A stretch of 64,000 nt of DNA from contig NC_085846.1 of the NCBI RefSeq assembly GCF_035594765.1, positions 11,023,190 to 11,087,189 of the forward strand, read 5' to 3'. Shown here in pieces: positions 13,001 through 16,000 of the stretch (position 1 is the first letter of the stretch; every line of letters begins with the position of its first letter). The position numbers and the translations under genes are program-made. The DNA comes from Anolis carolinensis. Lineage: Eukaryota. Below the pieces are notes generated by a model. It had not been told where the DNA came from, did not search any database, and saw nothing but the letters and a program-made list of their open reading frames with translations.

Positions 13001-16000
13001 TCAATGACCGACCTGTTTTTAGTAAGAGACATAATATCTTCTTTATCAAAGCTCAATGTACCGAGCCAGTCATCCATAGTGATATGGCTAAGTTACTATA
13101 CAAAGTCCCAGAATACTTGTAGAGTATCTATACACACAAACGAACGATTGTCAAAAAGTTGCTGTATATTTGATTGAAGAAAATAATGATGGAGCACCGC
13201 TCTCAAAAAAGTCTTCAAAAGTAAAGTACAAATAAAGTCCCAATTCTCTACAGGGGTCCCGGGTATTTTTGACCCTGTTTCAGGGGAAAACCCCTTCTTC
13301 AGGAGTTGTTAAACTCAGCAACAATGAATTTCTATCTAAAACAAAACATAGAGTAACAAGTATTTTACCAGCAGTATTAACAGAAGTAAAAGTAACCCAT
13401 ATAACAGTATATACTTACATAGTGCTAAATGCTTTCACTGAGTGACTCTGCTTGTGGTGATTTCAACTGCGAGTAATTCTGAAGGTTCACTCAAGGGTTT
13501 TTAAAGAGTACTTGAAGGTTTAAAGGAAACAGCTAAAATTAAGTGATTCATTAAGTCCCTGAGGGGAAAAGGTTTTAAACTTAAAGATCCAGTACATTTC
13601 CCTTTGGGATAATAGTTTTTCCAAGTCCATGAAAGGTTTTTGAGAGATGCATTCCAGAACACAAAATTTAAATGAGGTAGGTGAATGTTTGTATTGGGTG
13701 AAGTGTGAATATAAAAGAGATTCTGTAGATAAATTTTTGATTCTGGATTTATGTTCAGAGATTCTGATTCTCAAGGATCTGGTTGTTTTTCCAATATACC
13801 AGAGATCACAGTCACATGTCAAGAGGTAGATTACATTGTTGCTATTACAGGTAGAAAAATGTTTTAGTGTGGTGCCCACTTTGTTCCTATGATTATATAT
13901 CTCCTTAGTCTTCCAAGATTGAGGACAACACTTACAGTGACCACAAGGATAATGGCCTCTCAGGGTGCTCTTTGGTGTACTAATAGGAGTGGTTAAATCT
14001 GTATGGATTAAATATTCTCTAATATTTTTAGTACGCCTGTTTCCAAAAATAGGTAATTTATCGCAACCTGAAATATCTTGAAGAAGATGCCAGTGTTTTT
14101 TTATAATTTGGATTATGTGTTTGGAGTAATGTGATAATTCTTGTGTCCAGATAATTTGATTTTTAGTTGGTTTAGCAGATTCTTTCAGTAGGGTGGTTCT
14201 ATCAGTTTTTTCAGCTTTAATTAATGCCTTTTTGATGACATGTTTAGGATAGCCTCTACTTCTAAACTCCTGGCTTAAGGTCAGGCTTTCATGAATGAAG
14301 TGTTCATTAGAGCTTGAGTTACGCTTTAGTCTAAGTAGTTGTGAAAATGGAAGATTGGTCTTTAAACCAAAGTGGTGGAAGCTGTTATAATGAAGAAAAG
14401 AATTCTTATCTGATGGTTTTCTGAAGTTCTTGACCAACAGTTTGTTATGATGTTTATACACAGTAACATCTAAAAAATTGATATGTGACAGGTTGAGATG
14501 ACTGGTAAATTTAATAGACGTATGTATAGTGTTAATCCAATTAGAGAATCCTACTGCGGCTTCAGTTGTTTTAAATACTATGAATATATCATCAATGAAT
14601 CGGCCATAGTATATTATATTAGAATAGTACATATTTAAAGATGGATTAAGCAATATAGTGTTTTCTAAATGTGCCATGAATAGATTGGCAATCGATGGAG
14701 CTAACGGACTTCCCATAGCGACACCGAAGGTCTGAAAGTAAAATTGGTTTTGAAAACGGAAATAATTTTTCTCTAGTACTATATCTAACAAGTCCATCAA
14801 GAAGTGTGTAGGTGGTTGCAACTTTGTTCTCCTACGAAGGATATTTTCTATAATGGTACGAGCCTCATCTAGTGGAATGTTAGTATAGAGTGAGGTGACA
14901 TCAATCGTAACTAAAATGCTGTCCTCCTCAATATTGAGATTTTCTACGATATTAATGAAGTGCTTTGTGTCTTTAATGTAGGAATCACAGAGAGGGACAA
15001 ATGGTTGGCAAAAGGAGTCTAGATATTTGGCAACTGGTTCCAATACAGAAGATGAACCAGAAATAATAGGTCGGCCTGGGGGTGGAATGATGCCTTTATG
15101 AATCTTAGGAAGAATATAGAAGATAGGTATCCTAGGGAAGTTGCTGAGTTTAACAACTCCTGAAGAAGGGGTTTTCCCCTGAAACAGGGTCAAAAATACC
15201 CGGGACCCCTGTAGAGAATTGGGACTTTATTTGTACTTTACTTTTGAAGACTTTTTTGAGAGCGGTGCTCCATCATTATTTTCTTCAATCAAATATACAG
15301 CAACTTTTTGACAATCGTTCGTTTGTGTGTATAGATACTCTACAAGTATTCTGGGACTTTGTATAGTACAAATCACACACAACATGAACTAAGTGGATCG
15401 AGAAAACCACTGGCGGAGCGGGGTGGGGGGGGGAGCAAAACCCAGAATTATAGCACTGTTCTCCAAATAAGAATCTCCGCAATGACATTTCCCTTTACAG
15501 TCAGCCTTTTACAGCTGTAGGTTCAATTTTAATGGATTTGATTGACATAGTCTCAAGGAATCTCTAGGTGTGTGGATGTTGACCATAACGTTGTATAGGA
15601 GGACCTTCAGATTCCTAAAGACCTTTTCTCTAAAGTTAAAAAAGTGATATATTATCTGTGTTTATCCCAGATTCATGAGCACTGTAATCCCTGTAATTAT
15701 TCAGGCCTGTAGCAAGGGGGGGGGGGAGTTTAGGGGTTCAACCCCCCCCCCCCATTTTTCAGGTTTTTTAAAAAAATCCTGGTTTACTCATGAATTTTAA
15801 CTGGTTAACCAAATCCTCATGCTAAGTCTATGAGATGCAAAACATTAAGAGTCCCTCCAGGCACTATCTCAAGCAGATATTGACAGTTCTGTAGCCAGGG
15901 AAGGGGGTGCTAGGGGTTCAACCCCCCCCCCCCAGAAATTTTCAAAACTCCTCCCAAAAGTTTTTCTCTGGCTACGGCCCTGTATAGGATGTACTGTAGT

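Follow-up and report, generated by a model that had tools for sequence, protein, structure and literature searches.

The 64,000-nucleotide (nt) stretch of Anolis carolinensis contig NC_085846.1 analysed here (hereafter the window) contained, at positions 9888-15368, a single insertion of a Penelope-like element (PLE) that carries hammerhead ribozyme motifs and is flanked by a target-site duplication (Table 1). The 14-mer of this duplication occurred twice in the window. On the minus strand, a 5'-truncated unit (15141-13272) was followed by a full unit with both open reading frames (ORFs), at an offset of 3387 nt. Repeats within the insertion showed no mismatch over 1867 nt (9888-11754) or over the 229 nt of an inverted segment, thus indicating that the insertion is young. 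The inverted segment was joined to the upstream unit at a 2-nt microhomology (15140-15141), and its outer end at 15368 corresponded to unit position 13094, the main 3' end of the PLE family (see below). At the opposite end of the insertion, position 9888 corresponded to unit position 13275, and the flank matched the element at three of the four last bases. Partial tandem, inverted pseudo-long terminal repeat (pLTR) and target-site duplication, which are hallmarks of Neptune elements, were all present, and inverted pLTRs with target-site duplications are described as typical of PLEs (PMC3846280). With respect to the (TA)n preference of Neptune elements, the single target site represented by this insertion was not a microsatellite.

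Table 1. Coordinates of features of the PLE insertion in the window, and of discontinuous hammerheads in related loci (prefix L).
Feature	Position	Strand	Description
Target-site duplication, left copy	9875..9888	+	11-nt core 9877-9887; up to 14 nt including bases common to element ends; 14-mer also at 15367-15380
Truncated hammerhead, left end of insertion	9888..9918	-	helix I 5' strand, core, helix II, GAAA and 3 helix III bases; without cleavage site
ORF2	10133..12394	-	753 amino acids (aa) stop to stop; reverse transcriptase (RT), CxxCxxC linker, GIY-YIG-type endonuclease (EN); no stop or frameshift
ORF1	12328..13077	-	ATG at 13077; 249 aa (254 aa stop to stop)
U7 run in ORF1/ORF2 overlap	12361..12367	-	candidate -1 frameshift site; ORFs overlap in -1 frame
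Main 3' end of family	13093..13097	-	putative main RT start; ~155 nt past cut, 16-20 nt upstream of ORF1 ATG
Complete type I hammerhead	13241..13308	-	helices I-III and core; predicted cut between 13249 and 13248
5'-truncated upstream unit (partial tandem)	13272..15141	-	forms pLTR; 0 mismatches to 9888-11754 at offset 3387
Inverted 229-nt segment	15140..15368	+	second complete hammerhead; equals 13322-13094, 100% complementary
Target-site duplication, right copy	15367..15380	+	core 15369-15379
Discontinuous type I hammerheads	L003:3250-3452; L005:3463-3762; L008:3956-4291		139-331 nt between A15.1 and U16.1
Discontinuous type I hammerheads	L009:1094-1449; L010:4932-5138; L011:3449-3642		139-331 nt between A15.1 and U16.1
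Discontinuous type I hammerheads	L012:5116-5320; L020:3475-3724; L021:3430-3591		139-331 nt between A15.1 and U16.1

A Pfam search gave no match for ORF1 and an RVT_1 match for ORF2 (E 1.2e-11). For ORF2 itself no GIY-YIG match was returned by Pfam; several relatives have PF01541. The DKG motif and the terminal C/H/R/E/N residues were invariant in 32 aligned sequences including ORF2, as were the linker cysteines C613, C616 and C619 (CX2-5CxxC, zinc-finger-like); a Cys linker between RT and EN is also a feature of Nematis (PMC8557442). The best protein match to ORF2 was 100% identical and source-labelled Anolis carolinensis; a protein from A. sagrei was 86% identical. In an RT tree of 93 rows (excluding L056, L077 and P0003; rooted at the midpoint, without an outgroup from outside Neptune), ORF2 grouped with P0008 (FastTree 0.93) inside a vertebrate clade (1.0). 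P0008 was equated with Neptune-1_Ac on the basis of two stretches given in the supplement of PMC8557442, both of which are present in P0008. The two elements have host, clade, C-terminal GIY-YIG domain and Cys linker in common; however, ORF2 was just 50% identical to P0008, which makes the window element a distinct family. Judged by its encoded protein, the window element is a Neptune-type PLE with endonuclease. The U7 run in the ORF1/ORF2 overlap was followed by a weak hairpin (-12.5 kcal/mol over 80 nt) and was crossed without gaps, at identical run length, by a 346-nt contig of sequencing run X16, which derives from another sample. Separation of ORF1 by a frameshift is known in PLEs (PMC8557442), and an ORF1/ORF2 overlap was also observed in the relative loci L001, L002, L006, L015, L019 and L026.

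The minus strand of the pLTR contained a hammerhead core in the order C3-U-G-A-N-G-A9, G12-A-A-A15.1, U16.1-H17, with C3 at 13302, CUGAAGA at 13302-13296, GAAA at 13281-13278, U16.1 at 13250 and A17 at 13249. The topology was type I, with three helices of 3, 5 and 7 bp and an open-ended helix I. Helix I was marginal, with only three contiguous pairs (13305-13303 with 13248-13246) and three further pairs possible beyond a 2-nt bulge. Helix II (13295-13282) consisted of one A-U and four G-C pairs with a UUUU loop, its closing pair 10.1-11.1 being A-U instead of G-C. Helix III (13277-13251) comprised 7 bp, or 8 bp when A15.1-U16.1 is counted, with one bulged C and a 12-nt loop, so that the insert between A15.1 and U16.1 measured 27 nt. 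A second complete copy was found on the plus strand of the inverted segment (C3 at 15160, A17 at 15213), and the truncated copy at the left end (C3 at 9915, C15.2 at 9890) stopped at 9888, three bases into helix III. An earlier annotation made without database searches (the sequence-only reading) had listed the core, helices II and III, the sense copy between the tandem units, the inverted copy and the third copy ending inside helix III, and it agreed with these assignments to the base; the cut, which it had placed ~170 nt upstream of ORF1, lay 171 nt upstream of the ORF1 ATG. It had made no mention of the short helix I or of the A-U closure of helix II. The three copies represent one sequence duplicated in one insertion and are not independent evidence.

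A descriptor scan of both strands of the window matched only the two complete hammerheads. In 200 shuffled windows, one match was obtained with helices II and III of at least 4 bp and none at 5 bp, the setting that corresponds to the observed stem lengths. The motif is complete and far above chance expectation. Rfam gave no hammerhead model match in 5000-22000 at E<=1, a result that says little because seven loci with clear PLE hammerheads likewise gave 0 matches.

Canonical metazoan type I hammerheads have a 6-bp helix I, a conserved loop 1-loop 2 contact and G10.1-C11.1 (PMC4209133), features from which the window motif departed by its 3-bp helix I, UUUU loop II and A-U closure. Features in common with the minimal hammerheads of metazoan PLEs (56 rows and no Anolis row in Fig. 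S3 of Cervera and de la Pena 2014, PMC4209133) were type I topology, a pLTR location, a short helix I, a purine following A9, flanks rich in A/U and, where ends are inverted, another copy on the opposite strand. Minimal forms, however, lack helix III or have one of 1-2 bp with a palindromic loop, and no metazoan example in Fig. S3 exceeded a helix III of ~2-3 bp with a 3-4-nt loop; the 56 rows had ~2-9 nt between A15.1 and U16.1, in contrast to 27 nt and no short palindromic helix III in the window hammerhead. The published PLE consensus includes a bulged base after A9 and G10.1-C11.1 (PMC4209133), in place of which the window motif had A-U, or a bulged A plus an extra U. A 2019 review describes PLE hammerheads as having an extremely short palindromic stem III and as probably acting as dimers (PMC6765202), and a large helix III was reported only for fungal and protist PLEs (PMC4209133). 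The window motif resembles those of the latter, EN-deficient elements in its long helix III and in lacking a discernible contact between loops I and II; one of them, from Serpula, was cleaved as a monomer, at 0.16 per min at 1 mM Mg2+ (PMC4209133). The window motif, whose activity is a prediction, differs in its vertebrate host and in belonging to an element with endonuclease.

Relatives were sampled as 77 loci with related RTs (29-38% identity), taken from the best 80 of 539 confirmed matches. A strict scan of these loci, two pairs of which came from the same contigs, gave 36 hammerhead matches in 25 loci (0.3 matches, 0.15 of them long, per shuffled set). All but one (35 of 36) had 2-4 nt between A15.1 and U16.1 and lay on the sense strand; the remaining match was long, G-U-rich, on the opposite strand and looked like chance. 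Compared with these 2-4 nt, the 27 nt of the window hammerhead indicate a derived form. No convincing hammerhead was found in eight vertebrate-clade loci, though most of these may end before the pLTR, and none of 48 pattern matches in viral contigs was confirmed. Hammerheads in PLE pLTRs and inverted pLTRs are already known, and the long helix III in a vertebrate Neptune element is a variant of these. Such a vertebrate Neptune hammerhead was not found in the literature searched; Lunse et al. 2017 and Arkhipova et al. 2017, with their supplements, may list examples. The proposal of the sequence-only reading, that a type I hammerhead in a Neptune pLTR has a helix III long enough to close within one copy, unlike minimal forms, was supported by these comparisons.

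Contigs were mapped at 80% likeness on 12250-13750, which yielded 279, 29, 23 and 0 contigs for the four of 24 listed runs that were used; run X5 is DNA and X14 and X16 are probable RNA runs. No run containing the sequence is recorded as RNA and seven are presumed to be RNA, from which nothing follows about expression level. Contig depth in X5, which is a coarse sum and not a copy number, was 292-313 across 12403-13065 and then rose to 7061 (bin 13066-13116), 6789 and 6492; it then amounted to 3210 and 3309 over the ribozyme and to 4859 immediately upstream of it, and dropped to 756 at 13750. Loose ends leading into varied flanks occurred at 13093 (5 contigs, agreement 0.51) and, in X14, at 13095 and 13097. 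There was no depth step across 13275 (3210 versus 3309) and, among the 18 of 76 loose ends listed, none at 13275. Because depth across 13066-13269 was ten to twenty times the ORF1 level, a main end at 13275 was ruled against. These results indicated that the main 3' end of the family, the putative main start of reverse transcription, lies ~155 nt downstream of the cut and not in the hammerhead. The sequence-only reading had placed this start at or near the ribozyme, where one insertion end falls, and had proposed mapping 3' ends relative to it; mapping by contig depth and loose ends moved the main end downstream, to 13093-13097. The inverted pLTR, which it had treated as an appendage, bears the canonical outer end (13094). 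With regard to a 5'-truncation pile-up at the cut, depth fell from 6492 to 3210 and rose again to 4859, with no 13248 loose end among those listed. A hairpin ending at 13094 was considered as an RT start signal and rejected, since it was not better than shuffles (z +0.29 and +1.12). An identical 9-nt word, which may be due to chance, occurred on the minus strand at 13242-13234, past the cleavage site, and at 13110-13102, before the main 3' end.

Helix III had been called unusually stable in the sequence-only reading. This held relative to other metazoan PLE hammerheads, but not relative to shuffles, since its fold of -8.0 kcal/mol was no better than these (z -0.15). The hammerhead was the minimum-energy fold with 15-nt flanks and not with other flank lengths, and basal helix III pair probabilities were 0.4-0.86 in stretches of 78-251 nt. 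A competing structure, in which the helix I 5' strand pairs with the helix II 5' strand, was the minimum-energy fold with short flanks. The predicted fraction of active fold, which ignores tertiary contacts, was rejected as a test of function: nine conserved hammerheads (the discontinuous forms described below) scored only 0-21% and it was therefore non-discriminating. Monomer cleavage is plausible though unproven. Given its short helix I and the competing mispairing, the ribozyme would probably act slowly or conditionally. An A-U pair at 10.1-11.1 lowers activity in minimal hammerheads.

Family variants were mapped by hand, with four variant rows outside the listing and phase known within single contigs only. 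Nine variant events at >=5% were present in X5 within 13236-13316, none of them in the core or in the five basal pairs of helix III. Variants of helix II retained five pairs via G-U (hand mapping); in its most frequent form, the helix I 3' strand formed two pairs, then a C-C mismatch and then three further pairs. Between the window and the main X5 contig for ORF1, 6 of 721 bases differed. Three contigs from X14 and X16 bridged the cleavage site and may represent uncut, re-ligated or read-through RNA, or DNA. An outer helix I (13316-13311 with 13240-13235) was discarded, being broken by frequent variants at 13312 and 13314, and a candidate intron around the ribozyme, from donor-like 13418 to acceptor-like 13162, was not supported, with no splice joint in the two probable RNA runs. 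Cross-species covariation was sought in run X21, from another organism, which yielded 0 contigs at 80% likeness. At 13143-13158 and 13425-13443, loose ends from several runs pointed to subfamilies with replaced or longer segments. A loose end at window position 12585 in X16 carries a putative template-switch adapter; X16 would then be a cDNA library, and this position may reflect mispriming.

These observations point, with rather better than even confidence, to a slow or protein-aided ribozyme combined with a downstream start of reverse transcription. The motif would be an ordinary Neptune-type pLTR hammerhead in derived form, whose helix III has lengthened to 7 bp from the customary 1-2 bp and would close within one copy, so that no partner ribozyme would be needed for helix III. 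Probably just a fraction of the transcripts would be cut, or cutting would require the bound protein of the element. Reverse transcription would start internally at 13093-13097, as in Poseidon_Ac, a PLE of the same host, in which RT starts 111-118 nt into the ORF with the cut at +26, and cleavage and extension affect both strands of the target (Frangieh et al. 2024, PMC11167929). The hammerhead of Poseidon_Ac cuts only with protein and is dispensable for insertion in vitro (PMC11167929). In both elements the hammerhead lies upstream of an internal RT start and the ends of genomic copies mark that start; Poseidon_Ac, however, belongs to another PLE clade, has a single ORF with the hammerhead overlapping its start codon, and starts ~85-92 nt past the cut instead of ~155 nt (PMC11167929).

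The insertion itself probably arose from two primings on opposite target strands. Both of its outer ends are element 3' ends, which fits priming by each strand of the target. Priming at the main site would have yielded the short 229-nt segment, and a second priming at 13275 in helix III, aided by the 3-of-4-base match to the target end, the 5.25-kb segment, with the two joined at the 2-nt microhomology. Short matches of this kind often arise by chance, and this is a single event. Both copied segments cross the scissile bond; the template would therefore have been an uncut tandem RNA or a re-ligated circle, both of which fit, and not an open cut RNA. Twin and dual priming of L1 produces inverted segments between target-site duplications (PMC2837659), and Arkhipova et al. 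2013 put forward self-priming on an antisense template as the origin of inverted PLE junctions (PMC3846280).

Several findings weigh against this account of ribozyme and insertion. L1 twin priming leaves an internal deletion (PMC2837659), whereas the segments of the window insertion overlap by 48 nt; two templates or a circle would permit such an overlap. The insertion end in helix III (13275), although one event, might mark a minor RT start. When constrained, the active fold made up 3.6, 15, 3.7 and 0.5% of the ensemble at flanks of 10, 15, 20 and 30 nt, while four further stretches gave 0.1-3% and one of 444 nt <0.01%. That nine variants miss all 13 core positions has a chance of ~0.2 (hand count) and is weak evidence of constraint. 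A frequent extra base after 13271 disturbs distal helix III pairs, and changes at 13244-13246 disturb helix I. The core change G12U was present in a single contig at depth 8.8, and U16.1C in a single contig that apparently starts at 13285 and so lacks the first core half. Within-species variants showed invariance or one-sided changes in the helices, and no two-sided compensatory change was seen among them.

An efficient monomer ribozyme would differ from the slow or protein-aided one in that the long helix III, by closing in cis, allows quick co-transcriptional cutting: tandem transcripts would be processed to unit RNA with 5'-OH and 2',3'-cyclic phosphate, the 3387-nt unit would be ligated to a circle and reverse transcription would proceed from 13094 round it, generating partial tandems. 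Fungal PLE hammerheads with a large helix III do cut as monomers, and a circle model has been proposed (PMC4209133). The mismatch-free repeats within an insertion whose family differs at 6/721 bases in the X5 ORF1 contig are consistent with copying of a circle, but a tandem source locus with identical units explains them equally well. The low predicted active fraction is no exclusion, since the nine conserved discontinuous hammerheads score as low; the 3-bp helix I, the A-U pair at 10.1-11.1 and the absence of a recognisable loop I-loop II contact nevertheless argue against fast cutting, as do the contigs that bridge the cut in two probable RNA runs and the Poseidon_Ac RNA-seq reads, none of which is reported to start or end at the cut (PMC11167929). 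Efficient cutting as a monomer is thus considered unlikely. Slightly less probable still is a decaying or neutral motif, in which the helix III extension is a drifted local duplication, no useful cutting occurs and the family moves without a ribozyme. The region is indel-rich across subfamilies, the competing helix I/helix II pairing is the minimum-energy fold with short flanks, and the vertebrate-clade loci, with the limit on their length given above, showed no convincing hammerhead. Moreover, Poseidon_Ac RNA with a dead hammerhead inserts normally in vitro (PMC11167929) and Naiad PLEs have spread without canonical hammerheads (PMC8557442). Against decay, this young, intact copy has a complete core, X5 shows no core change at >=5%, and basal helix III is invariant among the listed variants.

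An alternative placement of reverse transcription, closest to the sequence-only reading, makes helix III a recurrent second start that leaves a 181-nt 'tail', as adjacent sites leave a 30-40-nt tail in other PLEs. One end of the window insertion does lie there, a tail delimited by two start sites has been documented in Poseidon_Ac (PMC11167929), and PLE tails occur at one end only (PMC8557442, PMC3846280). However, 181 nt far exceeds described tails, and the depth step and, among the 18 of 76 loose ends listed, the loose ends coincide with 13093-13097 and not with 13275, which makes a recurrent start in helix III very improbable.

Long helix III forms were also encountered outside the lizard family. 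A looser scan revealed, in one metagenome assembly, 11 loci with a first hammerhead half followed by CCGU (L003, L005, L008-L012, L018 and L020-L022). Nine of these closed, with the complementary strand, U-H and the helix I partner 139-331 nt downstream, compared with 0.23 expected when the downstream 490 nt were shuffled; the two that did not close had just 106 and 225 nt left downstream. The four basal helix III pairs were invariant in all nine. Compensatory changes were present in helices I and II: helix I pair 1 was C-G in eight and U-A in one, helix I pair 4 was G-C in five, U-A in one, A-U in one and mismatched in two, and helix II pair 3 was C-G in eight and U-A in one. The nine are related and do not represent nine independent events. 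Loop III inserts were mostly unalignable (3/9 aligned at 73-77%), and eight of nine contained the word GACGTC, perhaps a promoter element. The loci formed one clade (0.997) adjoining a Lineus longissimus protein and apart from the vertebrate clade (midpoint root), because of which the long helix III forms of the lizard family and of this clade most likely, as far as the RT sequences indicate, arose separately. A discontinuous hammerhead that Martick and co-workers are said to have described in 2008 in mammalian Clec2 mRNA reportedly also has its catalytic and substrate halves far apart; it is said to lie in a host mRNA and not in a retroelement, and to have its insert in loop I instead of loop III. 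No description of discontinuous PLE hammerheads was found in the literature searched, on which Lunse et al. 2017 and Arkhipova et al. 2017 may bear. Craig et al. 2021 mention Naiads with a core fitting no descriptor, but also state that relaxing the descriptors added nothing (PMC8557442).

A broader proposition, regarded as doubtful, is that Neptune-type PLEs escaped the need for dimers at least twice through growth of helix III (27-nt hairpin; 139-331-nt loop III), cut as monomers and release unit-length RNA that circularises, the circle being copied from a start ~155 nt beyond where it was ligated. A long loop III would then act as a timer, because cutting is impossible until the far strand has been transcribed. 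If this is true, standard descriptors miss such forms, and some PLEs listed without hammerheads may have them. The discontinuous forms widen the range of retroelement hammerhead architectures and suggest that short-loop motif searches undercount. Most PLE hammerheads are minimal and show hardly any activity in vitro, and insertion did not depend on the only one assayed together with its protein. The window element would help to settle whether the PLE cycle includes cutting and circularisation: an intact vertebrate element with a self-foldable hammerhead, whose RT start is mapped and whose protein belongs to a kind purified for a relative, constitutes a clean test system. If its RNA does not cut, the motif is an ordinary pLTR variant.

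Among the relatives, three vertebrate-clade loci in which no hammerhead was detected contained UUGAC(G)AA with donor-like GUAAGU/GUAUGU immediately after it (for example at L006:3765; L015:4190, 4336; L002:4339). These words possibly mark pLTR introns, perhaps interrupting a ribozyme half. In the minimal hammerheads at L017:5955 and L041:1008, one additional base separated C11.1 from G12, comparable to the extra U in the window hammerhead.

Elsewhere in the window, two minimal hammerheads (helix I 3 bp, helix II 6 bp, helix III 1 bp) were located on the plus strand at 44396 and 62541 in another repeat family, whose pieces, often inverted pairs, lie at 44012-44506, 31554-31644, 32379-32561, 61796-62036 and 62522-62664 and are probably short copies of another PLE. 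A cluster of long minus-strand frames at 19899-24807, two of which (569 and 346 aa) were scanned and gave no Pfam match, probably consists of repeats. A 406-aa frame with MACPF and C2 domains at 41919-43139 (+) is, by its domain content, an exon of a host perforin-like gene.

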